From the NCBI RefSeq assembly GCF_964204645.1, contig NC_134026.1, forward strand, positions 13,080,050-13,144,049: a DNA stretch of 64,000 bases. The letters are read 5' to 3'. This document shows, in pieces, positions 30,962 to 52,591 of this stretch. This DNA comes from Tubulanus polymorphus. Lineage: Eukaryota > Animalia > Nemertea. The number at the start of each line of letters is the position of its first letter. The first letter of the stretch is position 1. The notes under the pieces are model-generated. The model had not been told where the DNA came from. It was given only the letters and a program-made list of their open reading frames with translations, and made no database searches. The position numbers and the translations under genes are program-made.

Positions 30962-31435
30962 AGCTATATTTTCATTAGTTACTGTATCATATTATAAACA
31001 TACATTTGATAATCTATAACCCATATGTTTAATTACCCTCAATGAAACTATTTCTTTACAGGTGCAAAAGTTATTTCGAATATTAAAATATCGAATATCG
31101 GCCAACATTATCTACAACATAATTATTATTATCACCAGATAATTCTATATCAGCTGATAAATAAATACTATTCGGAACATTAAAAGTATTTAGTGTTAAT
31201 CTCAGAATTCTAACATATAAAGTTTTATTTGGATTAACATTACTAGGATCACGAGTAATTATATGATGACATCTTTCTGCTTTAATTGCACAACATATTC
31301 TAGAATTTTTTGAAGGATCTATATATTTTCCATCCACCATTTATTAAGAAAAAAAATTACTGATTTTTTTACTATGTTTACTAATCCAAAATTGATAGCA
31401 CTTACAACTGAGATTAAAAATAAAATTATATGTTC
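30962..31435 (-). pseudogene. Relic of a second, diverged Polinton-like element: end of the membrane-protein gene plus deleted major capsid gene
   Basis: YVRILRLTLNTFNVPNSIYLSADIELSGDNNNYVVDNVGRY and FEITFAPV..MGYRLSNVCL match the capsid gene at 38381-39628; the upstream sequence matches 39690-39755. Confidence 0.9.
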
Positions 31436-33449
31436 AACAGTGAATCTAGTACAGTATCCCAATCACATAAATATGCCTTTCAGTTATCTGTCTTTTCAGG
31501 TAAAATCTTGATTCAGCACCTAACACAGTAAAAGCTAATGGAAGTTATTGCCTTACGAGCAAGTTATCATTCCCTTTGATGGCAAGATGGGCTTGCAAGT
31601 TTATCAAAATACAATACATGTAATAGGTCATGAAGGCGTTCTTCATTCTCTTCACTCTACCTACTCCTTACCCAACTTACCAGTTTACCTACTACCCTAC
31701 CTATATTGCAGGATGCATTAGATGCAAGTACATGTACCTTTTTAATGACAAATGGAGGTCTTAGGCCATCTACATCAGGTGAAAATTTAGAGGCAAGGTC
31801 ACTATCACTTGTAGAAAGGTCACTGAGGTAGATGATCGGTGACTGTGACCTGAGGATGAAACTCCATGTTAATGATTATGACACATAAAGTATCTAAGTA
31901 ATAGCTTTGAATATTGACTCACTGAGTTCAAAATGTTTTCAATTACAATCCAATTACAGTAATATATACCTAGTTCGATCCTTCATCCTCCTAAAACATG
32001 ACATTCGCACATGTACATCATCCTTTAAGTAAAATAATTCACAAAGATTAAGACTTACACTTGATCAAAATTTCAATATGCAATCCCTCAAAACATGACC
32101 ATTACCTCACAATAAAATGTCTGGAAATTTTTCTTTCAATGACATAATATACTGTAGGGTTTGCCATTTATGCATGAACACGTGAAGTCTGAAGGGAACA
32201 CCCCCTGCTGCAAGTGCGGTCCTTTTTCAAATTTAGCTCTGCTCTAAGGTTCTTTTTAACAAAACTAGAGGACCAAAGGTCCCGAGGCTCGAGATATGTA
32301 AGCTCGATCAACAAAATCGTTGTTGGTATGGATTTATATTTGCCTTAGATACGATAACAGGGGTGGAGAAATGAAGGTATCGTTTTAACCATGGAGCATG
32401 TTTAATCCATATACTATCAAGTTATACTTACTACCATGACCACAGGATACAGTTTGCTTTCGGCACAATCGCCAAGAACCCATGACATAGGTCAATGACC
32501 ATCCAGTCCATGGGGTACAAGCTTAACGTCCATGTGTTAACATGGTTGTTTTGAAGCTGTTCACTGACTAAACCAAAGGCCAACTACTAGTTGTACCCTT
32601 AGGGCCAGGAGCTAGTCTAACGATCGACCAAGTGGAACAGAATGAATATTTCACCAGCAGTCTCATTAGAATTCTTGAATGATATCTAATCCGAACGTGA
32701 AACTAAACAGGCCACAGTCGAGGTTAAAACTACTTAATGGCGAAATTAAGTCTACACACCTTTTTTGTTTTTAATGGTTTCACAATAGAATAATTTAGTA
32801 AAAGTAGTAAAAATCGTGAATAATATTTCTTCACTGACTCAAGACCTTTTTGACAAAACGAGCATGTGGATTGTAGCCTATGCGGGACCCGCACTGTAAC
32901 GCGCATTATCATTATTGATACATACACGGTGAATGCCCTGTGTATAAGGCAATATTGCTGATGGGACATCCTCCCTTGGCAGGGATTCAAGCCTGATGGC
33001 ATCGCTACACTCAGCCACAGCACGTCCAGTGGCAATCTTGATGCCATCAGGTGTGAAATGTTATGCCATCAATGTTATATATGCGCACTCTCATCATCAC
33101 TGTGCCGCAAACTAAATACACATGGCATATTTCATTATATGATGTATCGATTCCGTCACGCATGTCTATGGTGAAAAATGTACATATAATGTATAATATA
33201 TTCTCAATGCATGTCTTATAGATTGTTATATACCGGTATGTCATTTTCATGAATGAATTTTATTTAAAATTCGTGCGGACGCAATTTTTTGACGGAAAAT
33301 TTTACTGCACTATGTGGACTTGCATTGTTTTTGATAAAATCACCCATGTTTGACATACAATTACTCCATTGAGAACGTTCTTTAAAAACAATATAAAAAA
33401 AAACTAATCAAATTTGGTAACAAGGAGCCTATCGGCTTATATAGCTCCG

Positions 33450-33828
33450 CTGTGTGATTTGAAGAAATGCAAGCGACAAGACACTACTCATCCCTGTGTG
33501 TTCTATTAACGACTTCATGGGAGCACCACATCCAAACGCCATAGCATCAGCGTAATTTCTTCAGATACAAATCATGATTTTCATGCTGTAAATTATTATT
33601 TCCACTAAGCTTATGCCTTCTTGACCGCAACTACCGAATTTGAATTCGAAAAGATTTTGATTTTTTCGGATGGCTGTTCATCCCAGTTTAAAGGTAAAGA
33701 TGCCTTTGGTGACCTAGCTCTTTCTGGTCTCTTATCAGACGCCATTATTACATGTCTTAACATGGAAAAGGAGAAGGTGACAGTGAAATTGGTGTCATGA
33801 ATAATTGCTTAGATCGAGCTATCGCGTT
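33450..33828 (+). pseudogene. Sola(2)-like transposase, 5' part (interrupted by the Polinton-like element)
   Basis: FSDGCSSQFKGKDAF and HGKGEGDSEIG motifs; the frame ...LDRAIA continues after 51051 as FGKVIIKHAQDMYDYC. Confidence 0.7.
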
Positions 33829-33914
33829 AGTAATAGGAAATGTGTTGTTTCATACCGGAGGTCGAAGGTCGAGACACCACTCATCACCAAGTAATTTTTT
33901 CCCTAATAAATGGG
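33829..33914 (+). repeat. Left terminal inverted repeat
   Basis: agtaataggaaatgtgttgtttcataccggaggtcgaaggtcgagacaccactcatcacc... is the near-perfect inverse of 50957-51045. Confidence 0.95.
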
Positions 33915-34234
33915 AGATAGAAAAGCATTCTTAGCAACAATAAATAACAGAATAAAACCAGCAAAAAAACAATTTGAAATAAAAAAGTTAATTGATGTTA
34001 CAAAAGAAATTGAACATAAAATATTAAAATTAGAAAAGATAAAAACTAAATATGGAGAGAAAGTATCAGCGAATTTAAGCTACTGTAATGTTAGTACATC
34101 GCGAGAATTTACAGTGTGTTTACCTGATAAATGGGTTTCATTGAGTACAGAGGAATTAAAAGATTTAGAAGGATTTAAAATAATGAAGACGGAAAAAATG
34201 AAGACGGTCATCATGATTTAGAAATTGTTGATTA
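33910..34234 (+). CDS. Small Polinton protein with TKYG...VCLP motif, unknown function
   Basis: ORF 33910-34221 begins at TAAATG inside the TIR; probable frameshift near the C-terminus. Confidence 0.65.
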
Positions 34235-34884
34235 AATAAAAAATAAAAATAATGAATATCTAGAATCCAAAATGACCTTAGTCGTTTTACGAACAACTAT
34301 AATCATGCTAGCCAAACATCTGTTACATGTTATTATAAGAGAGTACTTCATTTGAATATTGATCGATCAAACAGGTGTTGCAATTCAACGTTGTTGTTAT
34401 ATTGGATAGCTAGCAGTTATATAATAAGCGCGCAGTACATACAACACACACAGGATACATTCTCTCTCTTGTGATTAAAAGGAATATTTCAGTGTTTTTA
34501 AGGTAAGTTTTAGCAAAATTGCCCTATCCTCGACCTACAGAGTTTTCAGGGGATAAGCATCCCATTATTGAAAGGCGCCACGGGACGCTTATCCCCAGTC
34601 ATTTCTACACCCCCGCGACCCACGTCATCCGGGATCTCCTTCAATGATCAGCAGAAATCACATTAAAGGCGCCTAATGTAATTTCTACCAATCTCGAAAT
34701 TCGAAACCGACGGAGAAACCCGGAGAGTGGACGAAGGTGCATTTTCAAAATGCCTCTGCTGGCCAGAGCTACTCCAGTGCTCGAATGAATTGCCTTATAT
34801 ACTTAGCTAAAACACCTAAGTAAATGTTGTTGGTGTTTACTAAAGAAATATATGAAATTTGAAATTATAAATTATTCCGAATGA

Positions 34885-35385
34885 AAAGAATATAGGAATG
34901 AAAACTGATAAATGAATTATGGATTTTTAACTTAATTAAGATATAATTTTTAATCAAATTAGTAATCAATTATCCATGTTAATTGATTAACAAATTCAAA
35001 TTCAAATATTCATTTTAGCATCACACCCAGTGCTGCCATCTTTCAATTTAAGAATAAACTAATAATAAGAAACGACTGTAATACAATATTCAAGTAAAAA
35101 CTTCAAATTAAAATTAAAATAAATTAATAAAAATAAAGAATATAGGAATGAAAACTGATAAATGAATTATGGATTTTTAACTCAATTAAGATATAATTTT
35201 TAATCAAATAAGTAATCAATTATCCATGTTAATTGATTAACAAATTCAAATTCAAATATTCATTTTAGCATCACACCCAGTGCTGCCATCTTTCAATTTA
35301 AGAATAAACTAATAATAAGAAACGACTGTAATACAATATTCAAGTAAAAACTTCAAATTAAAATTAAAATAAATTAATAAAAATA
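34885..35385. repeat. Near-perfect 250-bp tandem duplication in the Polinton non-coding region
   Basis: tataggaatgaaaactgataaatg at 34891 and 35141, colinear throughout. Confidence 0.95.
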
Positions 35386-35410
35386 ATGAATATCTAGAAT
35401 CCGAAATGAC

Positions 35411-35869
35411 TTATCTGGACAATTTAATTGCTCCGCATAGATAGACAAAAGTAGTGTCAATTAAATTTAAAAAATTATTTTTTTGCTTTTTTTCTAAAAT
35501 ATTAATCCATTTTTTTATTATCAATTTTGGAATTTCAGAAGTATTTTCATTTTTGATAGCAGTTGTTTCAGAATTATAAATATCATGAATTTTATTTGAT
35601 TTCTTATACCAATTACACCCAATAAAAATGAATACAATTACAAATCCAACCGTAAAATATAGACATTTATCAAATATTCTATCATTAGAAGGAGTAGAAA
35701 TAACAATATTTTCACTATTTTTATTAACATTTTTATTACTTATTTTTTCTTTTACAGCTTTTTTATATTCTTGTGATTTAATTCCTAATTGCCGAGACCA
35801 TTCAATTTGTTTCTGTGATCTCGGTTTTTTCTTTACAGTTAATTCCTTCACTTCTTCCACCTTGTTCAT
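35411..35869 (-). CDS. Polinton protein with basic N-terminus and one TM helix
   Basis: 152-aa ORF, TAAATG start, hydrophobic LYFTVGFVIVFIFIGC. Confidence 0.65.
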   Translation of the reverse strand: MNKVEEVKELTVKKKPRSQKQIEWSRQLGIKSQEYKKAVKEKISNKNVNKNSENIVISTPSNDRIFDKCLYFTVGFVIVFIFIGCNWYKKSNKIHDIYNSETTAIKNENTSEIPKLIIKKWINILEKKQKNNFLNLIDTTFVYLCGAIKLSR

Positions 35870-35874
35870 TTATT

Positions 35875-36405
35875 ATAGAAATATTTTTACTTTCAATATT
35901 TGAAAATGTTATAACTCCAGTTGATAATAATGTCATAAATCCACCTAATTGAAATGATAAATATCCAATCCATTTATTTAATTCAGTCATGACTAAATAA
36001 TCATTTTTTAAATCAGCATATAATCTATTTTCATCTTGAATTGGTAGTATTTAATTACATAATTTACTATAACCTTTTACTACATTTTCTGATATCGCGT
36101 CATTAATTCTAGCTGTTCTCGCGGCTTCATAAATCTTAAATAATCTAATAATTTCATCTGAGTTCATTGTATCTAATTCATTATGTTAAATTTTTACCGA
36201 TAAAATTTTTACATTTTCCAGATGCTATTAATATTTCTAATTGATGTTTACAAAAAAGATAATATTCATAATTATTATTTGTTGTAACATTATTTAAAGC
36301 ACCATCATCTGGAGTTAATTTTGTTTCTGTTATTCCTAAATCATCTAAAGTTTTTTCAATTGGAACATCACTTTTTTTAGATTTTATTTTCTTTTCACCT
36401 CCCAT
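35875..36405 (-). pseudogene. Polinton hypothetical protein disrupted by stops/frameshift
   Basis: ORFs 36181-36405 and 35802-35990 are joined by coding-like sequence (NELDTMNSDEIIRLFKIYEAAR...); TAAATG start. Confidence 0.6.
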
Positions 36406-36437
36406 TTATATAACAAACAAATTAGTTGTGTTGTTGC

Positions 36438-36612
36438 AACTAGAATTCAACTAGAATGTAACTAGAATTCAACTAAATTAACAAGCTAGTTGAAATATTG
36501 ATGTTTTTATTTATTTCTTGTTAAATCTAGTTGATTTTTGTTCCAACTACTAATAACTAGAATTCAACTAGAATGTAACTAAAAATATACTAGATTAACA
36601 AGCTAGTTGAAT
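36438..36612. repeat. Intergenic 11-bp AACTAGAAT(TC/GT) repeats in two ~117-bp blocks
   Basis: aactagaattcaactagaatgtaact at ~36438 and ~36555, each followed by aacaagctagttgaa. Confidence 0.8.
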
Positions 36613-37221
36613 TTAAATAAATTCATATTTAAATGGGTGTTGTAATCTAAATAGTAATTTTGATCTTTTAATATTTTTCAACTTATGCATATATTCATTA
36701 TGTAAATCATGTGGAATAATATCATTTTCTTCAAGCGCATTTTTCATCGATTTTCTGTCTTTATTGTAGAATAAAACTAGAAATCTAATGTTTTCTCTAA
36801 AGTCTTTAACAATTGAATCATATTTTTGATTTAAAACACAAGTTGTTATCCTAAAATGTCTGCCAGAAAAAGCTAAATAACATAACTCACTCTCTCTAAT
36901 TTTTGAATCATGTAAATTTGCACAATCATCTATAATGAATAATGTATTTGATCCTTTATAAATATCTATTGCTATTTTAATACAATTATCTAAATTTTCT
37001 TTTACTGTTTTAGGATCTAATATAATAAATTTATTATTTCTAGTAATATTTCTATCATAAGGTTGATTAAATTCATATGTTGGACAAAATAATACTATAT
37101 TATCAAAATAGTTTTTATAAACAGTTTCTAATAAATTTAATATAAAATAAGTTTTTCCACAATTTGTAACGCCAGAAATTAACATATTATGAGGCTCAAA
37201 TATAAATAATTCCTTATTCAT
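36613..37221 (-). CDS. A32/FtsK-HerA-type genome packaging ATPase
   Basis: Walker A GVTNCGKT, Walker B LFIIDD, GRH motif, downstream Q sensor; intact 202 aa. Confidence 0.92.
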   Translation of the reverse strand: MNKELFIFEPHNMLISGVTNCGKTYFILNLLETVYKNYFDNIVLFCPTYEFNQPYDRNITRNNKFIILDPKTVKENLDNCIKIAIDIYKGSNTLFIIDDCANLHDSKIRESELCYLAFSGRHFRITTCVLNQKYDSIVKDFRENIRFLVLFYNKDRKSMKNALEENDIIPHDLHNEYMHKLKNIKRSKLLFRLQHPFKYEFI

Positions 37222-38350
37222 TTATAAATTTTTAATTTTACTTGATAATATCCATTCATTGAATTATCTGGCCATCCAACCCATTTTACTAAAGAATATT
37301 TTTTTCTTTTAATAGTTTTTGTTTTTAATACTTTTTCAATTTTATATTCTTGTTCTAGATTTTCAGTAGTTAAACTCAATTCTTCTTCATAAAAATACCC
37401 ATCAACTTCTTCACTATCTAAATCTTCTAATTTATAGACATATGGTTTTGTTGTTATTACCTTTTTTATTTTATATATTTCTCTAGTAAAATTTCGATCG
37501 TATCCTTTATCAAATATCTTTTTATACTTAGAAATTCTAACATTTTGACCAACTTTAGATTTAGGTTCACCAAAATCATCTACAAGAAATGCTCCATATA
37601 AATTATTCCAAACAATTTCAGCATTTTCAGGTTTTCTAGCATCAATAGGTTTCATTCCAATAGAAGAATGATAAGAATTATTATAACCTTCTATCAATTT
37701 TGGTAAAACATCAATCCATTTAAAAGTATTATTTGCTGTAAAATATTTCCACATTCTTGTTCTTAATGTTCTATTAAATCGTTCAACAACTGCTGCTTTT
37801 TTGTCCGATTTTGTTGAAAAATATTTAATATTATGATTGTCTAAGAGTTCATGAACAAGTGAATTATCAAATTCTTTTCCATCATCAAATTGTATTTTTT
37901 TCTGGTTTTAGTTTATCATCCGAAAGAAATTTTCTTAAAACATTTGATGTTTGTACAGCATCTTTTCTATAAAGTGGGAAGCTCCATACATAACGACTAA
38001 AAATATCAATTATATTCAATATCCACCAATAATCATCATTATCTTTCTTAACATTTTTCATATCAATTAAATCTCCTTGCCACTGTTGATCTACATAACT
38101 TACCATAGTTTTACGAATTTTATATTTTCTAACAATTTTTTTATGTGTTGTATATGTTGGTTGTTCTAACATAAATTCATTTATATCTTTATATCTAACT
38201 AAATTTTGTGGGATTATCTTATCTAATTTATCTTGTTTTACATGACGCCATATATTTTTGTTAGAAGAATAAGCAACCGAACTCTCAGGGTTGTAATATA
38301 AATTTCTTAAATATTGTTCTTTAGTATTAGAAGTTTTTTTTACCGTCCAT
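37218..38350 (-). pseudogene. Retroviral-like (RVE) integrase with C-terminal chromodomain; frameshifted at homopolymer runs
   Basis: LYYNP, QWQGDLIDM, IDIFSRY, QFDDGKEF, KAAVVERFNRTL, YHSSIGMKP, LVKWVGWP; frameshifts near 38335 and 37895. Confidence 0.93.
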
Positions 38351-38380
38351 TTATATATCCTTAATTTTAACTTTATATTT

Positions 38381-39628
38381 CTAATATTGAATACTATCTA
38401 ATTGTGAATTTACAATATTTAATTGTGCGTCAGATATAATATAAATGTGCATTTTAAAATTTAAGCTTCCTTTTTTCTTTTTCATGAATAATTGTATTCC
38501 ATCTTTAGTGTTCTGTAATTTTTTCCCAGAACCATGTAATGAATTATCCTCTGTTGTTCTAAAATCTAACCATAATGCATATCTATTACCGGTATAATAA
38601 TCAATTTGATTAATATCACAATTTTCAGATGATTTCACTTTTTCATTCATAAAATGTTTTCTAATTTCTTGCCATTGATCTATCATTCTCATTCCTTGAC
38701 AAAATATTTTATTTGCTATTCCTTCGATAGCTATTTCTACTTTTGTTATTTCAGGATTATAATAATTATCTACCTTTATTGCACCATTAGAATATGTTGC
38801 AATGGTAAAAAATATTAATATACCTTTAATAGATCTTCTTGGGAAGTTAATATTCTCATTAATTATTTCATCATTTGCATTAATAGTTACACTTTTAAAT
38901 TTATCAATATAATCATATAATAATGAAAATCCTTGATTGTATTGTGTTTGAATTGTGTTAGCAATATTTTCATTAGTTACTGTATTATATTCTAAACATA
39001 TATTCGATAATTTATAACCCATATCTTTAGCAACGCTAGATAATACAATTTCATTTACAGGAGCAAATGTTATCTCAAATATAATATCTTCTTGAATTAC
39101 ATATTTATATAAAGGTGCATTATTATTTGTCAATTCAAAATCTAATGGAATTTTATATTTGCTTCCATAAATCTTTTTAATCAAATTATCTACGTCATTA
39201 GTTACTACTGCATTATTGGCTTCAGATCTTAATTTATTTTGGTTTTCTTATTGGATACCTTGAAATATCATATTATTTCTATTTTCTTTAGTTAACCATA
39301 AATCTTTATAACGCGCAAATAAATTATAATCATCTAATGAGAAAACTGTTTCTGGTCCAATCTTTATAGTTAATTTTTTAATCAAATATCTTCCAACATT
39401 ACCGACAACATAATTATTATTATTACCAGTTACTTTTATATCGGCTGATAAATAAATACTATTTGGAACATAAAAAGTATTTTGTGTTAATCTAGGAATT
39501 CTAACATATAAAGTTTCATCGGGATTAATATTTGAAGGATTATGAGTAATTATATTATGTGATCATTCTGCTTTAATAGCATTAGATATTCTAGAAATCT
39601 TAGAAGGACTTATATAACTCGCACTCAT
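38381..39628 (-). pseudogene. Putative double-jelly-roll major capsid protein (one stop, one frameshift)
   Basis: ~415-codon beta-rich frame (NPSNINPDETLYVRIPRL, YKIPLDF, YKLSNICLEY, INENIN, YALWLDFRT, LHGSG, HIYIISDAQLNI) next to the integrase and ATPase; resembles capsid ORFs of invertebrate Polintons (from memory). Confidence 0.75.
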
Positions 39629-39648
39629 TCATTTGACAAAAAAATTAA

Positions 39649-41106
39649 TTATTTATTTTTTATTATTTTTTCTTGATATCTTTTTGATATCATATTCACT
39701 AACCCAAAAATAATAGCACTTACAACTGTAATTAAAAATAAAATAATATGTTCAGCAGCAAAGTTAATAATGTTTCCTGCAGATTTCAATATAAAACCAA
39801 CAATTGATGCAATAACTCCGGGCAATGCTGCAGCAGATTTTTTAGATATTTGCCATAAATATTTTGCAAATTTCTTTAAACCATCCTTAACTTTATCTTG
39901 TATAGAATTATTATCATTCGGGGATTTATCCGGTTTATTGGGAGTAGGAGTAGATAACAAAGAATTTGATATTGCTAAACCAATTGTTGTAAATAACATA
40001 GTTACAGCTGTTAGAATTGAAAGAATTGTGATTCCTTCTAATTTACATAATAATTTTATTCTATCTTTCAATGATATTTCAGAATTTGGTTTTATCAACA
40101 AATCTTTAAAAATAACTTTTAATCTATTAATATTATAATCATATGATTTTAATAATGATTTAATTTCTTCTTTTTGTAATTCTAAACTATCTTTTAAATT
40201 ATTAATTTCTTTTTCTAAACGTAATTCTTTTTGCCTATATTCCATTTCATCAATTACTTGACGATCAAGATCAGACTTTAATTGTTCTATTTCTTTATTT
40301 TTATCGGTTAATTCATTTTTCTAAAGTTCTAATTTTAATATCTCTTATACTTTTATTATGTGCAATTTTATCAGCTTCATTTCTTATACTAATAATTTCT
40401 CTAATTGCTTCATCAGAAAATATATTTAAATCTTCTAATTGTTGATCTGTTGCATCAATTAATCCATTCGGTAAAAGTTTTTCAATTGGAACCTTATTTG
40501 ATTCAAGTTTACTAGTTTTGGAAGTTATATTCTGTTCAGAAGTAGTTTCTGTTTCTGTTTTCTTTTTGATTATTTCAAATAATTCATTCTTTGTTTAAAT
40601 ACGTCTATATCATTATCAGTTAATTCTTGTTTTATAACATCAGTTATTACATTACTATTACTAATTCTTTTAATTCTATCTGGATCTAAAATACTCAAAG
40701 TTGATTTTGTTAATATTTTATTTTTATTATTTTTATAAGTGATATCAATATAATAATCACCTTTCAAATGATAATACCATTTACCATTATTTAAAAATTT
40801 TAATTGATCTGCTAAAGGTCCAAAGTCTTCATCATTTATATTAAGTTTAGAATTTTCAATTAAATGTTCTAATTTAGGTATTTTGTTTAAATTATCTAAA
40901 CCTTGTTTTACTAAATCTGGGTCTAAATTTTCAGGATTTAATTGTGATTCTGCATTTTTAATATAATCAGGTATATTTAAATTATTATTATGTCCTGGCT
41001 CATTACTGTCATAAAAACTTTTTTCACTAAAATCAGATTGTTGTTCATCAGTTATGCCAGGTTCATCAAAATTATCCATTCCAATATCTTCACCTTCTAC
41101 ATCCAT
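39649..41106 (-). pseudogene. Coiled-coil plus multi-TM Polinton protein, split by frameshift
   Basis: ORFs 40570-41106 and 39649-40245 with coding-like linker; hydrophobic GITILSILTAVTMLFTTIGLAI and C-terminal helices. Confidence 0.65.
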
Positions 41107-41128
41107 TTATATAATAAAAAAATTAAAA

Positions 41129-42400
41129 TTAAAAATATAATATTCCTCCTATAACAATTCCTATACAAGTTAAAGCTAATTTAGTATTTTCATGGAATTT
41201 ATTATCATTATCAGTTTTAATTATTTCATGTTGAATATTATCAGTTTCAATATTTTCTGATGTATTATAATCCGGTTTAGAATCATTATTTAATTTAATA
41301 TTCTTAGTTTTAGTTTCTGTTGATTGAATGATATTAAATGAAAAAAAAATTAATCCAAATGAATTATTTATTGTTGCAGTTTTAATTAGATTATTATAAC
41401 CAATTCTAATTCCCATCTTTAATACTAAATCATTAGAAATAATTAATAGATTAGGGCCTATACAATAATTTAGTCTTACATGAGATTTATCTAAATAATT
41501 TTGATATCTTACAATGTTTTCTAGAATAGATCTATTTTTATCATTATGAATTGAATCTTCAAATAATACTTTGAACTGTTTCTGCGCATCGAATGAAGTG
41601 TTATCATTTCCAACTATTGGTGATCTTGTTTCAACTTGCGCACCTAAAATACATATCAAATAAGTTCTAATAGATTGATTTATTCTTTGTACACCTGATT
41701 TTGTAAAACCTTCACTATTTTCTAAAATGAAATTAACCCAACCATAATTGTTTTGTTGTTGTATATTATTATAATATTTTGGTAATTCATTCCAATTTAG
41801 TGTTCTTATATCTGAATTTGTTATTATTTTTCCAAATTCTTTAGTATATAATATTCCTAATCCGCCCATTGTACCAATTTTTGCTCTAAAATCTTTATTT
41901 GAATTAATATTAAATTCATTACATATTTTATAAAACTTAGAAAAATTAATATTATTATTCAATTCTTTAAAATATTTTGAACCTGGAAAAGGACATTCTA
42001 ATTCATCTAATATTAATTTGATTTGAAAGTATGTATGAAATCTAAAAAGTGATAACATCAATGGTAAACTTGGTTTATTCAAATGATCATTCGAACTTAT
42101 TCCACATCCTGTTGTTGCGCAATAAACAGCAAAATTTAATTGGTTCTGCCAATACTTCATATTAGATTTTAATAACCATTGTTTTGCCTCATTTAAATTT
42201 TTAAAATTAATTGTATACACATGAAATATATTTTCCATCTTAACATGAAAATTATTACTTTCAGTAACATAAATAAATAAATCAATTAATGAATTTAAAA
42301 CTTCATTTCTATATGTAATATCTTTATTAAAATCTATTGCTGGAATATTATATTTAATTGATTTATTATATTGGAAAGCTTTTGGAAAACTATCTACCAT
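41129..42400 (-). CDS. 423-aa Polinton protein with C-terminal membrane anchor, unknown function
   Basis: Intact ORF, WQNQLNFAVYCATTGCGIS motif, TAAATG start. Confidence 0.8.
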   Translation of the reverse strand: MVDSFPKAFQYNKSIKYNIPAIDFNKDITYRNEVLNSLIDLFIYVTESNNFHVKMENIFHVYTINFKNLNEAKQWLLKSNMKYWQNQLNFAVYCATTGCGISSNDHLNKPSLPLMLSLFRFHTYFQIKLILDELECPFPGSKYFKELNNNINFSKFYKICNEFNINSNKDFRAKIGTMGGLGILYTKEFGKIITNSDIRTLNWNELPKYYNNIQQQNNYGWVNFILENSEGFTKSGVQRINQSIRTYLICILGAQVETRSPIVGNDNTSFDAQKQFKVLFEDSIHNDKNRSILENIVRYQNYLDKSHVRLNYCIGPNLLIISNDLVLKMGIRIGYNNLIKTATINNSFGLIFFSFNIIQSTETKTKNIKLNNDSKPDYNTSENIETDNIQHEIIKTDNDNKFHENTKLALTCIGIVIGGILYF

Positions 42401-42416
42401 TTATATAATAAAAAAA

Positions 42417-42836
42417 TTAATAATCTATTAATTCTTTTAATAATTTATCTTGTTCTTCAACTGTTATACGGCCATTTAAACTTATTATATAATCTAGTGT
42501 ATTCTTTAATTTATTAATTTCTTTTATATTAGTTTTAATTTTTTCTTTATTACTTTTTATATTTAATTTTGAACTTATACCGGTTAATACACTTGATGAT
42601 AATCCTAATACGCCAATTGATATAGCTAAAGGTGTTAATGGACTGAATATTGCTAGAAATGTTATTACATAACTAATTGTAACCGAACCACTTATAATCA
42701 AATAATATATAATTTTAGATTTTAAATATTATTTCTTTTTAACTTTTAAATCATTTTCAAATTCTAAATATATTGTTAATTTAGCTTTATTTATATCATG
42801 AGGAATGATATCAATATTATCAACTTTATCTTCCAT
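42417..42836 (-). pseudogene. Small membrane protein (probably frameshifted; real start ATG at 42836)
   Basis: ORF 42417-42701 is hydrophobic; upstream TAAATG start at 42836. Confidence 0.6.
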
Positions 42837-42855
42837 TTATTTAGCAAAAAAATTA

Positions 42856-43278
42856 CTAATTAGTAAATTTATAAGCAACAAATATAACAATAACTGTTCC
42901 GCCTAAAATCCAAATTATTTCATATTTCTGTTGTTCTTTACTTGGGGTATAATAATCTGATAATTTAGGTTTGTATAGATGTAATTTTTCTTTATTGGTT
43001 ACTGCGTTATATAAACTCATTGCATCATCAACTGATTGAAAATCTATATGTGAAATTTTCTGATCATATAATTCCTTGTTAATATAATCCATATAGTTTT
43101 GTCTTTTTTCTCTATATCCTTCTGCTGCTTTATTGTATTTCTCTAATGCTAAGTTATGTCTTTTTTGTTCTGTTAATGATCGATTTTTATCAATATGCTT
43201 AAATAAATAACCGCCGCCTGTATATGCTAAAGCGTTAACAATTGCCGATCCTATAATAGTTATAACTGCAGAAGCCAT
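42856..43278 (-). CDS. 140-aa protein with N- and C-terminal hydrophobic helices flanking a coiled coil
   Basis: Intact ORF MASAVITIIGSAIVNALAYTGG...EQKRHNLALEK; TAAATG start. Confidence 0.75.
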   Translation of the reverse strand: MASAVITIIGSAIVNALAYTGGGYLFKHIDKNRSLTEQKRHNLALEKYNKAAEGYREKRQNYMDYINKELYDQKISHIDFQSVDDAMSLYNAVTNKEKLHLYKPKLSDYYTPSKEQQKYEIIWILGGTVIVIFVAYKFTN

Positions 43279-43520
43279 TTATTTAGCAAAATAATTATGT
43301 ATATGGGAGGAATATATTTTTGTTTTTCTAAATAATCAATTGTTAAATTAGATAAAGTTACTGCTAATGTTAATTTTAAAATATCATTTATATCAAATCT
43401 ATCAACATTAACACTTCCCCTTTTGAATACTTTTTTTAATACCATTGAATAACCAACCGTTCCAACTGATAGCAATGCTCCATTATATAATCCAGTTTTT
43501 ATCCACTTATTATCACTCAT
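43260..43520 (-). CDS. Small hydrophobic Polinton protein
   Basis: 86-aa ORF, TAAATG start. Confidence 0.65.
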   Translation of the reverse strand: MSDNKWIKTGLYNGALLSVGTVGYSMVLKKVFKRGSVNVDRFDINDILKLTLAVTLSNLTIDYLEKQKYIPPIYIIILLNKWLLQL

Positions 43521-43529
43521 TTATTTATC

Positions 43530-44640
43530 AACCAGAAATTAACTTTAAAATGTAGAATTTCTGGGATAAGCTAATGTGGAATCGAAGTTTTAAGAAATTT
43601 GGGGAATTATGAGACTTGGCGATTGGGTAGATGATACAGTCTTCGACTGGTCTAATTTAAAAAAAAATTGTCAACTTGTGACCGACTTCGATTTACTTTT
43701 GCCTCTAAGCTGGTCTGCAACTTCATTGCCTCCATGGTTGAAGAAAGAGCTCTTCTGATGTCTGCTTCATCATGACTTCGAGCATATCGTGTAGCCAGCC
43801 GGCCCGGTCACGGGGCCCGGTTTGGCTGTCACTCGATATCCTAGACTTGAGTCTGTGTTGAAGTAGACATTGTCATTTAAAGAACTTATTAATGTTATTC
43901 TGTATGAATTACCCGTGTGTCTTGTATTTTGTATTTTCTTAGTTTAAAATTTGTAACTTAATTGAATTTGGGAATTTTATCCCGGAATTTCAATGTAATA
44001 AGGATCAATAAAGTATTGAATTGAATTGTCACCTTATACACATGCCATCAGTGGACGCGGAGCCGTATATGACAGCTATGCTATTATAAATTGCTAATCT
44101 CATGAAACCTGCATACCCCTAATGTCAAACATATTTTCTAAAACATTTGAATATTGAAATTATATGTTAACACGTTTTTATATAGACCGCTTGTAGCCGC
44201 CGATGAAATTCACGCCGGCCCAACTCAGATCGTAGATAGCTTCGTCATTCCACCAGCATCCCCATGACAGGGTCTGACTTTTATATCAGACTTCCAAATC
44301 GTGTATACATCCGCCATTTAACCGAATAATCTGATTTACTTATCATTTCTATTTATGCCTGCCGCTCCTGATATAATCATGCATCATTTACTATTACAAT
44401 ACGTCTTCTCATGATATTCAATGCAATATAACATTCCGACGTTCAAATAGAGGTCATTATATAATCACAGGGAGCCATTCTACATCTTTATCAATAATAT
44501 TTTGCCTAATGGCTTGTATGTGTACACATAAACCTGTGACGTTTTGCACATCGATTTGCGGTTGTCGTTTGTAAAATGACGCTGAATGGTTAGCATTGTT
44601 AAGGTTTCATTATGGTAACGTTTTATAAGGCGTCAAAAAA
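43530..44640 (+). mobile_element. Non-autonomous Helentron-like insertion, copy A, inside the Polinton
   Basis: Higher-GC 1.1-kb block homologous (inverted) to 51451-52591; AAC(A/C)AG 5' end, AGGCGTCAAAAA 3' end; inserted in an A-run. Confidence 0.75.
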
Positions 44641-44645
44641 AATTA

Positions 44646-44960
44646 CTATCTTCAAAATATTTAGTTAACTTATTTATGATTAAATCAACATTTATTTCAT
44701 TACTACTTTTATGATTATCATATATTTTGGTTTATATGTTTTTAATATCATCAATAATTCCATCTTCATTTAATTCATAATATTCTAAAGATTAAATCCA
44801 TTAATTTTTCTATATTACAATTTTCTTTATTAATCATTGATGCATTGTTAAATGATTTACTTTTTATATCAGTAATTACATCATTTAGTTTAATTCTCAT
44901 TTCTTTACCATGTTTAAAATCAAACCCAAAACATATACTCGGCCCAACAGTTATATTCAT
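44646..44960 (-). pseudogene. Small Polinton hypothetical gene
   Basis: ORF 44775-44960 with canonical T-tract/TAAATG start; coding-like sequence continues past the stop. Confidence 0.5.
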
Positions 44961-44977
44961 TTATATAGTGAAAAAAA

Positions 44978-45735
44978 TTACTCTCTACATCTTATAACTA
45001 ATTCATAAATTACAGGGAAATTATTTAAATCAATTAAGTATCCATTGTGATTTCTAATTTCTAATTTAAAATTATTAAATTTAGGAATGCATGGTTTGAA
45101 ATCACATTCTGTTAAATTATAATTTATTTGCGTTCCAAATTCTTTAACATTCTTCAATGGTAAACTGTTTAGTAAACCAGAATTACAAGTTATATCTTTA
45201 GTTGCTTCGAATGTTTTTGTATGATCGATTAAATTGAAATAAATATAAAAGTGTGTAAAAGGTATTAAGTTTGGTGTAGCATCAATATTTGTAAAAGATT
45301 TATCTGGAGGAATTCCTAACAGTTTAGCTATAGGTTTTTTACCATAAATGCATGTTTTTCAATATCAGACAACCTTATCTTTATTTTGTTAGAACTCTCA
45401 CCTTTAAAAAATCTAATATTAAACCCGGAATTATTACCTGACTTGTGCCAGGCTTTTCTATTAATTTCTTGTGCCAATGTATCTAAATTATAAAACCCCG
45501 GTTTTAAATATATATAGGCCCATTCATTTTTGTTTTTATTAAAAATTAAAAAGGCTCTATGTTCAACAGTTTTATCCGTTATATTATAAAAAGAATAACA
45601 TAAACTTATATTTACTAATCTTAAATCTACACAATTTTTATATTCCCAATCTAATTGAACTAGTAAATTATGAGATTTAGAATTTGTAAGTCTTCTAGAA
45701 TCAACAAATATTCTGTATTCTTTTAATTCACCCAT
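44978..45735 (-). pseudogene. Putative minor capsid (penton, single jelly roll) protein, frameshifted near 45330
   Basis: N-terminal IFVDSR..LVNISLCYSFYNI..PGFYN; C-terminal FKLEIRNHNGYLIDLNNFPVIYELVI, typical of Polinton/virophage pentons. Confidence 0.65.
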
Positions 45736-45803
45736 TATTTATAACATAAAAAAATTACCGCTCATCACTAAAAATTAATTTTAATAAAATTTTTCGTAAA
45801 TAA

Positions 45804-47000
45804 ATGGATGAGAAGATACCATGCGAAATTTGTGGTGAACTTCTAAGAAAAAGTAATATGGCTCGACATATGAAAAAACATGATGAAAATTATAAACCCC
45901 CTAAAATAAACTGCCCAAAATGTAATAAATTATTCTCAAGAAATTATGTTAAAAAACATTCAGAGAAGTGTAAAATTAATGGCGCAACGGCTAATGTTGA
46001 TAGTAACGAAAGTAATAGTAATTCTGTTGAAGTTAAACCTGAAATTATTTGGAAAAGACCTTTCTTATTCTATGACAAGGATAATATAAAAGATCATATC
46101 TGCGAGCCTTGTCGAAAAAAATATAACCCTGAAAATATAGAAGATTGGGAGAATCATCAATTCCGTAAAGTACATATAGATAAAATTTCTAATAAATTTG
46201 AAGCAGAATTCAATGAAAGAAAAAATAGTTTATTAGAAAAAATAAAATATGAGAAAACGTAACCAGATAATAAAGAAACAGTTGAAAAGTTAGAAAAACA
46301 ATATAATGAATTAACAAGAAAAACATATCATTGTAAATATTGTAAATTGATTATTACAACAAGTAATTCAAATCTGAATAATAGAACAATAAAACATAAA
46401 GAAAACGTAAGAAAATACCAGGAGCTTAATGAAGATCTATTACCAATAAATTATAAACAAAAATGCCCACAATGTAATTATGCGACCTTAAGGCAAGAAG
46501 GTACTGTGTTATTTTGTAATGAATGTGGATGGCAAATAAATTTATGGGGTGAAGAAAAAACTAGAGATTTTCTCATAGAACCAAAATTAAATTATCTAGA
46601 TGAAATTTTTAAAATATTTCCTGTAGAAGATCATACACCAGAATATATGCAATGGCTTGAAAAAATGAAAATGATAGAAAATAAAAATGGTGAAATAACT
46701 AAAAAAGATATTATAAAAACAAATATTCCATCAACATTGAACACAAAACAAAAGAAAATGTATTTATATTTATTATTTAACGATTATTATGAAAAACCTA
46801 AATCAACAGAAGAAGATATGGAAAATATAAAAAAAAACATTCAAACAAATATTAATGTATCATTTGGAAAATAGAATAACAGATTCAATTAATTATGAAT
46901 TCTTTTTAAATAAGATTGTAAATTATCTAAACATCGATATTATAATTCCATTTGACGAATTAACAAACAAAAAGAAACAAAGAGAGCGAGATGAAATGTG
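45804..47000 (+). pseudogene. C2H2 zinc-finger array fused to a VLTF3/A2-like late transcription factor domain; one stop, one frameshift, C-terminus cut by hAT insertion
   Basis: ORFs 45804-46262 and 46347-46874 are in the same frame; Zn ribbon CPQC-x14-CNEC; after removing one A in the run at ~46830: TFKQILMYHLENRITDSINYEFFLNKIV. Confidence 0.7.
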
Positions 47001-50000
47001 CAGGGTTCAAAGCTTCCATGACCTATCTGATTCAATGACTTTCCATGACCTTTTCAATCCCAATTCAATGACCTCTCCAACCCTAATTTCATATCTGAAA
47101 CCCCGAGGAATGACCATGAAACGACAAACTTAACTATAAAAGAACAAACGTTAAAAAGACAAATTATTAATTTGTTAGAATATTAATTTTATTTCATAAT
47201 TATATACTCATATACTTCATGGTGCAGACAAATGATTAATCTTTTATTTACATAAACCTAAACCGGTAAAGCATTGATATATCAAAGTAACATCTTAAAG
47301 TCCTTTTAGTGCTTCTTGTTTTTTATCAATAAGTTCTGAAATGTCATTAATTTCTGCACGTTTATCATTGGCCGATTTGCGGAATGACACTGATTTCGTA
47401 ATCAGTGGACGAACATCTTTTAAAGCTGTTGCCTGTTCTGCTTGCTCAATAAACTTATTTGCGGAGGTGGTGAGCGACTCGATGTCAATTTCAAGCAATT
47501 TCTTTTTTCGTTTTAATTTCTCCAATTCTTCACATTCGGCTTTACGCTTAATACCCCTAGCACTTTTTTCTGAATCAGCCTTACATTTCTCCAGATAGGC
47601 CTTGTACTTCGAATATGCCTGAGATGCGGAAAGAAGTAACTCCTTGGTAATTTGTACTTTCAGCACACCACCTACGGATCGAATGTGGTCTACAATCATT
47701 CTTTGAGCTTCATACGATTCATTAGCTAGGTTTTCAACCTCGATCTGCTTATTTACCGAAAACCCTCTCTCTACAGAAGCCTGCCCATGAGATAATAACA
47801 GCAGGTTGCTTATAACTGACCATAATTTATCAAATGATGAATTGCATTGCATATGTTTATGATAGAAAGTATCTAATCTATCTGTTTTTTTGTTGAAGCT
47901 CACAAAATCCGATTTAGTTTTTACGACTACGCTATTGATGAATTCGTCCATTTGGTTTAACACGGTATCACAATCCGAATCATCTATATGATTCGAGCTC
48001 GACAATGAACTTATTATTCTCTGGAACTGAGCGCGACTTTGGTCACAATTAGCGGCAAGCTCGTTCGGATTTAAACATACCATATTTCTAACCAAAGAAT
48101 ATTGGATCGGCGCTTTGGCTATTATTTTATCCACTAAACTGATAAGAAATTTTCGAGTGTTCATTCTCAGATCGAGAAACTGGCGCTGACTTGCTTTTCC
48201 AACTGCAATAAGTTCCTTAACTTTTGCCTCCGCGATAAATCCGATGTCGATTTTAGAATGAACGCAATAATTCGATTCCTTTTTTGTATCTATCTTGATC
48301 AACTTAGTGAGAGTATCTGCTTCCCGAATTATATCACTTTTGATGAATCGCTTCATCAGTAATCGGAGAACATTATGTATGTCTTCCGCCAAAAATGGCA
48401 GCATTGGCCTGTCCGTCTGGTAGATGGTTAAGAACGGTGTAACTGTTTTTGCAATAGATACATACGCACGCAGTCTCGGCAATACCATATCAGATGACGC
48501 TAAGTCTTTTATGTATAAATATGGTTTCGATGTCGGTATGTTAGCCTTTTTCAAAGTTTGAACGTGCTCCACAAATTTTATGATATACGGCCATAGTTCA
48601 ATCGCACGTTCTGCAGCTGGCAGGTTATCCAGCCATCTAAAACAAAAATAGAAATGTTGAGTTTAACTGCTAACATACGGCAAGGAGATAAAACAATAAT
48701 TGATAACCAGGGTAATTTGGATTGCCTAATTAAGTACATGTATTTTAATAACAACTAAAATCCAATTCACTTACCTAGTAGAGCAAAATTTATATGGAAA
48801 CTTCTGACTACCAGTGACCTCAGTAAACATTTCTCTTCTGACAGGAGCATCTTTGAACAAATAACGCAGGTTGATAAGAAGTGACTCCAAATCCCAGTCA
48901 GTAGCATGGTCGCCGGCTTTAAAGGCATTATGCATGACATGTAAGCCACAGCTGCCTATGTTCAGAATAGACTTTCGAGTATTACACATACTTGAAATTT
49001 CTTGTTGCAACAATTCATAAAATTTCCAATTCACATTTGGACCATCCATGGACAGTTGATAAAGATTGGAGTAATTGAGATCTCCAAATGTGTCCATAAA
49101 TGAATGCAGCATATCGTCTGCAGTCGCTCGTCCAATGAAGTCTGAACCGTAATACGAAGACCTTACTACATCATGGTCCCAGAACCTAATTAACACATCC
49201 AACTGTTTAGTTTGCGTACGCTGATTCAATGATTCGTCGAATAGTAACACGTATTGTTGGTCTTTGATTTTCCGTCTCATCAGATCCTTTACATGTGGCA
49301 TAATACCAAAACGAACTAGATATGCTGCTTTCTGTTGACTAAGTGAAAACATCTCGGCTATTTGACTGTCTGGAAAGCATGCCTTAAGTATGTCATTCAT
49401 TCCAGAACAGGAATTGTAACTGTGGTGATTGTTTATCATATTCCAAGCATAAATTATCTCGGATTTCAGGACAGTATCTTTTGCAATATATGAGTCCATT
49501 ATTGGCCTGCAAAATAAAAATAATAATTGTAATAACTAACATAGTTGTAATAAATTCAATTGTAAAATATTAACAATTCTGTATATTAATGATTAACTTA
49601 CCTTGATGTTTGACGATTACTTGCTGTCAAAATACTGCTTGTTGTATTACTCGAAAACATGTTAGGAATACCTCTTGTTGAATTAGCCAAGGTCATCGAT
49701 GACACATGGAGTTTACTTTTAATGTGACTTTTCAAAGCAGCCTCTCCCATATTTGCGATGCTGAAGTTCCGAAGACATTTTATACATCTGGCTTCATATT
49801 CTGATTTTGTTTTTCCTATCCAAGGACTATAATCCTCATGATTAAGCCAGGAATCTTTAAATCTACACTTTGCGGGCATACTGAATATTTCTTTAAGGAC
49901 TGAACTCTGATGGATGTTTCCTCATGCAGATGCAATACATATCTAATGAAAGGCCCAGTTTTGCTAGGCCTATTATTTAGTTTCAGAGCTATTGTAAGAT

Positions 50001-50150
50001 TAATAATTAGGAAAAAATTTTGAATGAAATATTTAATAAATTAACCATGTGAAATGCATTGTTCTAACAGACCCAGTTTATGTCATTTAGAAATTAATCA
50101 CAGTTATATATGTTATAGGTAGGCATAAGTAGAGTCTGAACACTGAAACG
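47001..50150 (-). mobile_element. hAT-superfamily DNA transposon nested in the Polinton (one end not recognisable)
   Basis: Terminus CAGGGTTC at 47001 with subterminal (T)TCCATGAC / CAATGAC repeats; transposase gene; no matching TIR/TSD found near 50150. Confidence 0.8.
47295..49879 (-). CDS. hAT transposase, 3 exons (49879-49602, 49506-48775, 48636-47295), ~783 aa, apparently intact
   Basis: Two phase-2 GT-AG introns restore the frame; N-terminal Zn finger, LLFDES, SMDGPNVN, SCGLH, TRW, QASVERGFS motifs. Confidence 0.88.
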
Positions 50151-50158
50151 CTACTGAT

Positions 50159-50961
50159 TTAACTGCTAATTACCAATTTCATTACAATTGTTATTACTGG
50201 AGATCTCGTATATTTTTTCTGTCCATCTGCTGCGTAGAATCCAATGAAGAACCATTTTCTAAAATTATATTTTGCATTTAATACATAATCTGGTACTATC
50301 TTTTCTTTAGTTGAAGTATTACTTTTCACTATTGCATGAATATAGAATTCATCACTATATTTTATAGCAAAATCTTTAGGATTATTTACATGTATTCTAT
50401 AAACTGCTGATGATTTCATAACATCCATGATTCTAAATTTTTTATGTGAATAAACTTCTTCGCAGAATTTCTTAATTCTTTCTAATAATTTTAAGTCTTG
50501 ATTGCATAAAAACCAACAATATTTATTACCCCAAACATAATTATACACACCTGCTGAACCATCGCCCATGAAAAATCCTTTGATAAAATATTATAAATAT
50601 ATTATCAATAAATTTTTATAATTTCTATATTATAAATATTATCAATAATTTCATCGAATGACATATGATTCATTCAAATTTTGATGGTGTTTTTGTGATT
50701 CGAGATGTCTATTATAATTCCTTTTTACTATAAATTCATTACAAACTTCACATTTTATTTCATCCACATTCATATCATCTAATCGTTCTATTCTTTCATT
50801 TGTATTATCTAGTTTTCAAAATCTATTACATTTTTTATAAGATTTGCAGTTTTTTCATGTCGTGATTTTTGGGATTTATCGATGTATTTTTTACAATATT
50901 GGCAATAATATTGATTTTTATTAACATTATTATTTTCTGGCTGGTGTTCATTCTCCCCCAT
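50159..50961 (-). pseudogene. Zinc-finger region followed by a two-motif LAGLIDADG endonuclease domain, degraded and truncated
   Basis: Start MGENEHQP at 50961; CQYC..H and CEVC..RHLESQKH fingers; then FIKGFFMGDGS and FFIGFYAADG about 110 aa apart. Confidence 0.65.
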
Positions 50962-51045
50962 TAATTAGGAAAAAAAATTACTTGTGGTGATGAGTGGTGT
51001 CTCGACCTTCGACCTCTGGTATGAAACAACACATTTCCTATTACT
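50957..51045 (-). repeat. Right terminal inverted repeat
   Basis: Inverse of 33829-33914; ends CCTATTACT, followed by TSD CGCGTT. Confidence 0.95.
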
Positions 51046-51450
51046 CGCGTTTGGTAAAGTCATTATCAAACATGCTCAAGACATGTACGATTATTGTAAT
51101 AACTGCCTTGTACTCAATGATGATTTGACCAAAAGATCTTACATTTACGTGGGTGTCAATGACGGCGATCGTGATAGGCCTCTGGCAAGTTCAGTTAAAA
51201 CAGTAAACGGCAGCAGAAGATTGCATGCATTTCGTAAATGTGGTGATTGGACGCTGTAAGTTCGAGACTTCAGCTGTTTTTGTGATTTCTGTGTAGGTGT
51301 TTCGCAGATTGCGCAACACTGTGTAAATTCCGAGAACGTTGGGGATTTCGCCAAGTGAAAACTAAAACGTCACAATGTATGTTTATAATATATCCTTAAT
51401 TCATTCAAGTATCCCTGAGAAAGTCCATTCTTTGTAGGAAAAAAAATTAC

Positions 51451-52591
51451 TTTTTTGATGCCTTATAAAACGTTACCATTATGAAACCTAAACAATGTTA
51501 ACCATTCAGCGTCATTTTACAAACGACAACCGTAAATCGATGTGCAAAACGTCACAGGTTTATGTGTACACATACAAGCTATTTGGCAAAATATTATTGA
51601 TAAAGATGTAGAATGGCTCCCTGTGATTATATAATGACGTCTATTTGAACGTCGAAATGTTATATTGCATTGAATATCATGAGAAGACGTATTGTAATAG
51701 TAAAGGATGTATGATTATATCAGTAGCGGCAGGCATAAATAGAAATGATAAGTAAATCGGACTATTCGGTTAAATGGCGGATGTATACACGATTTGGAAG
51801 TCCGATATAAAAGTCAGACCCTGACATGGGGATGCTAGTGGAATGACGAAGCTATCTACGATCTGAGTAGGGCCGGCGTGAATTTCATCGGTGGCTACAA
51901 GCGGTCTATATAAAAACGTGTTAACATATAATTTCAATATTCAAATGTTTTAGAAAATATGTTCGATATAAGGGGTATGCACGTTTCATGAGATTAGCAA
52001 TTTATAATAGCATAGCTGTCATATACGGCTCCGCGTCCATTGATGGCATGTGTATAAGGTGACAATTCAATTCAATACTTTATTGATCCTTATTACATTG
52101 AAATTCCGGGATAAAATTTAAAAAACTTACAAATCTTAAAATAAGAAAATACAAAATACAAGACACACGGTTAATTCATTTAGAATAACATGAATAAGTT
52201 CTTTAAATGACAATGTCTACTTCAACCCAGACTCAAGTCTAGGATATCGAGTGACAGCCAAACCGGGCCCCAGGACCGGGCCGGCTGGCTACACGATATG
52301 CTCAACGTCATGATGAAGCAAACATCCAAAGAACTCTTTCTTCAACCATGGAGGCAATGAAGTTGCAGACCAGCTTAGAGGCAAAAGTGAATCGAAGTCG
52401 GTCACAAGTTGACAATTTTTTTAAAATTAGACCAGTTGAAGACTGTATCATCTACCCAATCGCCAAATCTCATAATTCCCTAATTTCTTAAAACTTCGAT
52501 TTCAAATTTGCAATTCCACATTAGCTTCTCACAGAAATTCTACATTTCTTCGCAGGCGTCAAATAATTGATTAAAGTTAATTTTCTTGTTT
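51451..52591 (-). mobile_element. Non-autonomous Helentron-like insertion, copy B
   Basis: Inverted homolog of 43530-44640 with substitutions and indels; keeps the 5' subterminal IR (aggcgtcaa at ~52555) that copy A lost. Confidence 0.75.

Follow-up and report, generated by a model that had tools for sequence, protein, structure and literature searches.

A conserved T-run and TAAATG motif resembling poxvirus late promoters at the gene starts of a Polinton-type element and its relatives

The window analysed here, a 64,000-nt stretch of contig NC_134026.1 from the nemertean Tubulanus polymorphus, contains a 17.2-kb Polinton (positions 33829-51045) at whose gene starts a short motif recurs: a run of T followed, after a spacer, by TAAATG, the last three letters of which are the start codon. 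The element is flanked by a 6-bp target-site duplication (CGCGTT at 33823-33828, right copy at 51046-51051) and ends in terminal inverted repeats (TIRs; left 33829-33912, + strand; right 50959-51045, - strand), whose arms match at 98% over 61 ungapped nucleotides and continue through the motif with small indels. The TIRs, the 5′-AG end and the 6-bp duplication are all as expected of Polinton termini. Many of the element's genes are broken, and three insertions interrupt it.

Both TIRs end, on their inner side, in the motif. On the left it points inward (T6, 6-nt spacer, TAAATG; 33891-33912, +) into a 103-aa open reading frame (ORF; 33910-34221, +) of no assigned function, which is 69% identical to its orthologue in L001, the closest syntenic relative of the element; on the right a variant (T8, TTAATG; 50959-50981, -) lies ahead of a 50-aa zinc-finger ORF. 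Between the TIRs, and on the - strand, motifs stand at 41104-41125 (start 41106, a broken coiled-coil/membrane gene, 41106-39649), 42398-42419 (start 42400, a 423-aa ORF with no Pfam family and nothing at or above 0.9 in an atlas search), 42834-42856 (start 42836, a broken gene whose L001 orthologue has 144 aa) and 44958-44981 (start 44960), and a variant at 43276-43297 opens a conserved 140-aa gene (start 43278). TAAATG also starts the ORF at 35869-35411 (35867-35872, -), a broken membrane-protein-like gene (36405 to ~35805, -; TAAATG at 36403-36408), an intact A32-type packaging ATPase (36613-37224, -; start 37221; Pox_A32, E=2.6e-13) and a broken integrase with rve and chromodomain matches (37218-38353, -; start 38350; E=1e-5 and 0.007). 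The major capsid protein gene (38381-39628, -) is interrupted by stops and shares 73% identity with intact relatives; its start carries a variant with T7 and TGAATG (39626-39647, -). Finally, two motifs diverge from one another: a variant with T7 and TAAATAATG (45733-45758, -) at the start of a broken gene (45735-44978, -) that is minor-capsid-like by size and position only, and T5 with TAAATG (45786-45806, +) at the start of a broken gene resembling VLTF3, the poxvirus A2 late transcription factor (45804 to ~47040, +).

The original prediction had placed the capsid start at 39632, which is out of frame; homology puts it at 39628. It had also listed gene 43520 among those with a plain TAAATG (43518-43523, -). 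That gene does have a T-run, at 44646-44635 on the - strand, separated from its TAAATG by the insertion of a ~1.1-kb repeat inside the motif (43548-44640; second copy at 51451-52547, 93%). In the L001 orthologue, the same bases are contiguous with the start.

To quantify the association we used gene starts picked by protein homology to related loci, independently of the motif. TAAATG is found at 12 of 14 such starts, compared with 22 of 459 other ATGs in the element's own DNA (p=2e-13), and the two remaining starts carry the near variants TGAATG (39628) and TAAATAATG (45735). TAAATG together with a run of at least five T marks 6/14 starts and 2/459 other ATGs (p=5e-9); among TAAATG sites alone, T-runs accompany 6/12 starts and 2/22 non-starts (p=0.013). 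The strict pattern TAATTWTTTT-N(2-10)-TAAATG has six matches in the 64 kb (shuffle mean 0.04; 0/100 shuffles reach six), five of them inside the element. The sixth (31338-31359) falls in a separate, diverged Polinton, overlooked in the original prediction, of which a capsid-gene fragment remains (~31000-31440, -); this covers the capsid start and the last part of the gene upstream, its DNA is 76-82% identical to that of the element, and the same motif is intact ahead of the capsid start (31338-31360, -). Markov simulations of order 1, 3 and 4, with the element's own DNA as background (12,175 nt, GC 0.24, insertions excluded), never reached the five observed strict matches (0/300 each).

The motif at Polinton gene starts is thus real, as originally predicted, and every string quoted in that prediction is present in its place; the comparison it had proposed, with internal ATGs and with shuffled or composition-matched sequence, found the motif far rarer there. 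That it arose by chance in DNA of 22-24% GC is a reading to which the 22 non-start ATGs with TAAATG lend some colour, and it is refuted by the 0/900 simulations and the enrichment at starts, as well as by the persistence of the motif at a GC of 0.44 and its absence from equally AT-rich sister loci, described below.

Through an alignment of the capsid protein we obtained 24 metagenomic loci, which we divided into a related group (n=13; L001, L003-L011, L013, L014 and L017) and a sister group (n=4; L015, L016, L018 and L019), dropping two near-duplicates (L002, L012) and five distant fragments (L020-L024). The grouping was first made with the gene starts in view and afterwards checked on a capsid tree, in which the window and 12 related loci fall in one 22-row clade (98/94) with L015 outside; L016-L019 are absent from this tree, and nine rows of the clade are without DNA. 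Across the related loci, TAAATG starts 47 of 57 ORFs of at least 100 aa, against 80 of 1949 other ATGs. In the four sister loci it starts none of 12 (13/348 other ATGs). The related loci span a GC content of 20-44%, and the motif persists at 0.40-0.44 and in rearranged gene orders; even the TGAATG of the capsid start recurs in L014.

Counted from the T of TAAAT, the profile of these starts has A at -15 (81%), a T-run from -13 to -7 with T at -12 to -9 (60-94%), peaking at -9 (93%; 76% at -10), and A at -1 (85%). A G follows the ATG (+4) at 70-72% of starts. The G that the original prediction had set at the head of the motif precedes the TAA-T-run in only about 20% of cases in the relatives and is not conserved. 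We considered two promoter classes, with an A-core and a T-core after the manner of intermediate and late promoters, and the relatives show one blended profile. The genes that bear the motif include those for the integrase, ATPase, capsid, kinase (in L001), DNA polymerase (in L094) and VLTF3-like protein. L094 is a more distant Polinton that retains a polymerase; all seven of its starts are TAAATG (one forced by the search pattern), with T at -9 in only four.

Several observations on these relatives stand apart from the motif analysis. L001 encodes a deoxynucleoside kinase (10343-10981, -; Pfam E=2e-31), whose gene diverges from the 45804 orthologue and has a perfect motif; the window has no kinase, and among 38 homologues of the L001 kinase there is no named virus that would point to a helper. 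In L002/L003 (1748-3040) and L005 (2287 onward) the capsid is followed by an additional gene of 280-430 aa, which has no Pfam family and whose TAAATG is preceded by an A-run in place of a T-run. Several Bartonella sp. assemblies also contain capsids of the clade, annotated as hypothetical proteins and located on short contigs (cluster P0009); these are probably eukaryotic or viral carry-over.

The arrangement of starts bears on the kind of signal the motif represents. Were the T-run to end the upstream transcript and TAAATG to act as a stop-start junction, the motif would simply follow from the dense packing of genes. In three cases in the window (42419, 44980 and 42855) the leading TAA coincides with the stop of the upstream gene or abuts it, one TAA-ATG stop-start junction links integrase and ATPase in L001, and T-runs are scarcer in coding strands, where TTTTTNT occurs 14 times against 44 expected. 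However, TAA ends an upstream frame of at least 60 codons at only 3 of 54 TAAATG starts, and the motif is present in places where no gene ends, namely the two TIRs and the divergent pairs: 14 of the 54 starts face a divergent gene, and in the divergent pairs of L003, L009, L010, L011 and L013 the ATGs lie 19-30 nt apart. The depletion is also unspecific, as other T5 contexts (52 vs 88), A7 (26 vs 54), the sister loci (3 vs 9) and some unrelated loci are depleted likewise. AATAAA occurs near 24/52 stops, which is uninformative in such AT-rich DNA. We consider the packing explanation very improbable.

Two predictions made from the window alone can be judged on the same evidence. The T-tract was said to occur where no gene lies upstream, which we find at both TIRs and at the divergent 45735/45804 junction, and a promoter was favoured over a terminator or AT bias, a preference upheld by the TIRs and divergent pairs together with the GC-rich relatives and the motif-free sister loci. 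The further proposal that the T-run doubles as a poxvirus early terminator gains no specific support from the depletion, which affects all homopolymer runs and the motif-free sister loci; TTTTTNT itself is contained in part of the motifs and is absent from those at 33910, 43278 and 45804.

An ordinary host signal, be it a compact RNA polymerase II core promoter, a translation-start context or a trans-splice acceptor, would suit an element that sits in a eukaryotic genome with Pao/BEL retrotransposons, pieces of which lie on its flanks and suggest a host among the animals, and the G at +4 would suit a Kozak context. Host translation-start contexts follow a purine rule at -3. The starts of the clade show the reverse, with T at -3 in 49 of 57, whereas the sister loci, which have no motif, carry a purine there in 8/12 (T in 3/12). 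AG lies within 12 nt of the ATG in only 10/57 starts and a TATA-like box upstream in 4/57, and the 19-30 nt between divergent ATGs likewise speaks against a host signal, which we regard as unlikely. Collectively, these counts argue against stop-start coupling, splice acceptors and ordinary leaders; they fit transcripts that would begin inside TAAAT and be leaderless.

Such a start is known from poxviruses. The vaccinia late promoter has a T-containing core 5-7 bp before TAAAT(G/A) (PMC5294985), and the T at the 10th position is conserved (PMC11980589); the viral polymerase itself reads the TAAA (PMC12917281), and slippage there yields 5′ poly(A) leaders, as in the yeast pGKL elements (PMC6211774). 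Late words differ among large DNA viruses, that of pacmanvirus being TATATA (PMC11788076). Like the poxvirus late promoter, the Polinton motif has TAAATG fused to the start codon, a T-run ~6 nt upstream, although with an offset peak, a common G after the ATG and tight divergent pairs. For a quantitative comparison we used 41 poxvirus-type loci around VLTF3, including Amsacta moorei entomopoxvirus (L036/L201) and two loci that carry pox genes (L204, L205), and 79 of 80 non-pox giant-virus loci. TAA precedes the ATG at 84% of starts in the Polinton clade (n=55), compared with 40% in poxviruses (n=589) and 19% and 12% in two non-pox groups (n=935 and 256). The upstream T-profile of the Polintons correlates with that of poxviruses at 0.48 and with those of the non-pox groups at -0.20 and -0.09; two entomopox and two metagenomic pox loci give 0.29-0.41. 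T occupies both -9 and -10 in 33/46 Polinton starts, 50/235 pox starts, and 14/181 and 5/32 starts of the non-pox groups.

A number of points weigh against a poxvirus assignment. The Polinton T peak at -9 lies 1-2 nt nearer the start than the -11/-10 peak of three chordopox T-type gene families (a class set by T-richness, and so partly circular), and it is far sharper than in any sampled poxvirus locus. Two unclassified giant-virus bins, L198 and L191, also have T-rich TAAATG starts (6/12 and 8/21; pattern-selected), and the comparison holds no fair sample of the irido-, asfar-, pitho-, ego- and mimivirus groups. The Polinton motif further differs from poxvirus late promoters in its conserved A at -15 and in its setting, an integrating 17-kb element without an RNA polymerase. 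Of the vaccinia layout initially proposed for the motif, the arrangement itself stands, with poxviruses the closest of the sampled groups and not a match; the offset of the T peak and the TAAATG starts of non-pox giant viruses leave the label 'poxvirus' not established.

Two observations emerged alongside this comparison. In the non-pox giant-virus loci L243-L303, an A-run at -21 to -14 precedes TAAATG at 19% of starts, an arrangement like that of vaccinia intermediate promoters. On the metagenomic poxvirus-type contig L204, core genes are accompanied by a gene for a reverse transcriptase (6269-7297, +; Pfam E=4e-20).

The VLTF3-like gene, which the original prediction had not noticed, offers a second likeness to viral late transcription. 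It survives in three pieces, with zinc fingers at the N-terminus, and is truncated at ~47040. The last piece matches Pox_VLTF3 (PF04947) as its sole family (E=5e-4, 20.2 bits), which on its own falls under the cut-off of 25. The middle and last pieces are collinear on a pox-like VLTF3 profile (E=2.7e-4 and 3.5e-5), on which they are the top two of 3316 six-frame peptides; joined by an X at the break, they reach 43 bits across positions 4-180 of the profile, where 500 shuffles give at most -0.5. The N-terminal zinc ribbon and the collinear C-terminal domain are those expected of a VLTF3. A narrow non-pox profile gives -0.7. Yet this asymmetry is in part one of profile breadth, as pox proteins score ~0 on the non-pox profile and non-pox proteins reach 15-42 on the pox profile. 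In the tree, moreover, the VLTF3-like protein falls outside the pox rows, where it has a long branch and a weakly supported position, and viruses without an RNA polymerase can retain VLTF3 as well (PMC11253617); each of these points tells against the helper-virus reading set out below. No longer homologue of the middle piece was found among 457 candidates, which is weak evidence, and no VLTF3 domain was shown in the related loci, all of which are partial. A weak VLTF3 match in L009 (E=0.006) looks unrelated on reading, and we rejected the identification of the 45804 region as the N-terminus of a polymerase.

These data are consistent with a late promoter that would serve the transcription apparatus of a large DNA virus acting as helper, as in virophages, an interpretation to which we give about even weight. 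Because every gene class, the VLTF3-like gene included, bears the same word, nothing in the element looks early; if all promoters are of one class, an outside factor would be needed to start the programme. A single word on all genes is also the pattern of helper-shared promoters described for virophages (10.1101/2025.10.09.676808, PMC6401483, 10.1101/2022.07.28.501842, PMC11464507). In such a scheme, the T-run and TAAATG would act as a late-type promoter for the RNA polymerase of a large DNA virus that infects the same cell and transcribes its late genes in a poxvirus-like way, and the element would have lived as an integrated satellite, or provirophage. By analogy with vaccinia, late factors would bind the upstream A/T tract as a core, and transcription would start at the AAA inside TAAAT, where slippage of the polymerase would add a non-templated 5′ poly(A) leader and thereby put A instead of T at -3. 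Each gene would be under its own promoter, and the VLTF3-like protein may boost the helper machinery or bias it towards the element's sharper promoter. As to the helper, a poxvirus lineage is our tentative best guess, and another nucleocytovirus is possible. Relatives of poxviruses are present in marine sediments (10.1101/2024.03.23.586382).

Alternatively, the motif may be a late promoter of the element's own, at which its VLTF3-like factor would recruit nuclear host RNA polymerase II without any helper. The element does encode such a gene, and mriyaviruses, which are thought to be nuclear, retain VLTF2/VLTF3 without an RNA polymerase (PMC11253617). The motif is sharper than, and offset from, the sampled pox promoters, as co-evolution with a private factor would predict, and the non-pox giant-virus group with TAAATG at 19% of its starts has no RNA-polymerase motif in its 61 partial loci. 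Against this, the VLTF3-like gene and the integrase bear the same motif as the rest, leaving no early class visible to start the cycle, and in vaccinia it is the viral polymerase itself that reads TAAA. The domain was also not shown in the related loci (again, all partial), and L094 has its seven TAAATG starts with no VLTF3 in its 9 kb. We view self-sufficiency as a possible but less probable account than helper dependence. The most specific form of the helper reading, in which the whole clade of animal genome-integrated Polintons would be provirophages of an undescribed poxvirus-related virus, with pox-type late promoters and a VLTF3 of their own to steer the helper polymerase, is conceivable and in its entirety rather doubtful.

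Parts of this system have precedents. Virophages and Polinton-like viruses (mavirus with CroV, Sputnik with mimivirus, Gezel-14T with PgV) are likewise small, capsid-encoding, integrating elements with one promoter word before single genes; theirs are mimivirid words in protists, whereas here a pox-like word is found in a Polinton-type element of an animal-like genome. Polinton-like viruses tied to poxviruses are known from entomopoxvirus occlusion bodies (Barth et al. 2024, PMC11296320). As described there, one lineage has capsids adjoining those of animal Maverick/Polintons, and two of the viruses are without a detected rve integrase; the main text contains no promoter analysis. Polintoviruses that share a VLTF3 homologue have been reported (Stephens et al. 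2024, PMC11131425; Starrett et al. 2021, PMC8502044), in main texts that do not treat promoters or link VLTF3 to a start motif, and the accessible text of PMC10748475 has no promoter analysis either. The linear yeast elements pGKL1/2 (PMC6211774) share a TAAAN initiator, with poly(A) leaders made by slippage. Unlike the Polinton, pGKL2 has its own RNA polymerase and an upstream element like that of pox early promoters, and it neither encodes a capsid nor integrates.

Helper-shared promoters and VLTF3 in Polintons are thus each already known separately. A clade-wide pox-type initiator in integrated Polintons, beside a VLTF3-like gene, appears to be new: we found no description of TAAATG or of a pox-type late promoter in Polintons in the full-text literature, a scope that leaves out supplements and most subscription papers. 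In the sources covered, the transcription of animal Polintons and their dependence on helpers are treated through gene content only, and a start motif at a fixed position across a clade, together with a VLTF3-like gene, makes the transcription question directly testable. Helper dependence, if true, would bring integrated elements of animals within the scope of provirophage biology and hint at pox-like viruses that sampling has missed; were the elements provirophages of a pox relative, the motif would serve as a sequence tag for helper viruses not yet isolated. Helper independence, if true, would instead show a role for VLTF3 in elements without an RNA polymerase.

The remaining gene content is that of a decayed Polinton. 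A model of an intact, 73%-identical relative of the capsid protein (pLDDT 84.7) matches the capsids of iridoviruses, PBCV-1 and mavirus (best E=8e-16), and the major capsid protein is accordingly predicted, by way of this relative of the broken gene, to be of the double jelly-roll type. The capsid profile had 0 matches among PDB sequences, and capsid searches of viral contigs and of prokaryote genomes returned no relative. For the protein-primed family B DNA polymerase, there was no tblastn match to the element with the L094 polymerase (E<=0.01) and no Pfam match. A foreign, GC-richer insert of 3 kb in the right arm (47130-50160, -; borders approximate), with ORFs that we label transposase-like despite no Pfam match, makes loss of the polymerase indistinguishable from its native absence, and we filed the element as a Polinton-type copy without polymerase. 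The scanned ORFs of the element likewise gave no Pfam match for a cysteine protease or a minor capsid protein.

Lastly, a few features of the element and its surroundings fall outside the motif. Inside the right arm lies a LAGLIDADG-like homing-endonuclease fragment (50159-50590, -; Pfam E=0.004, atlas scores 0.91-0.93), which is unusual in an animal Polinton and may be the intein remnant of a lost gene. In the left part, the two copies of a 35-nt direct repeat (34242-34276 and 35376-35410) frame a GC-richer insert together with a tandem duplication of 250 nt (34885-35384), which is exact. The T-run segment at the inner end of the TIR recurs as an 18-nt copy at 51435-51452, 390 nt outside the element and adjoining the second copy of the 1.1-kb repeat; its complexity is low, and it may reflect chance or a target preference for A/T runs.

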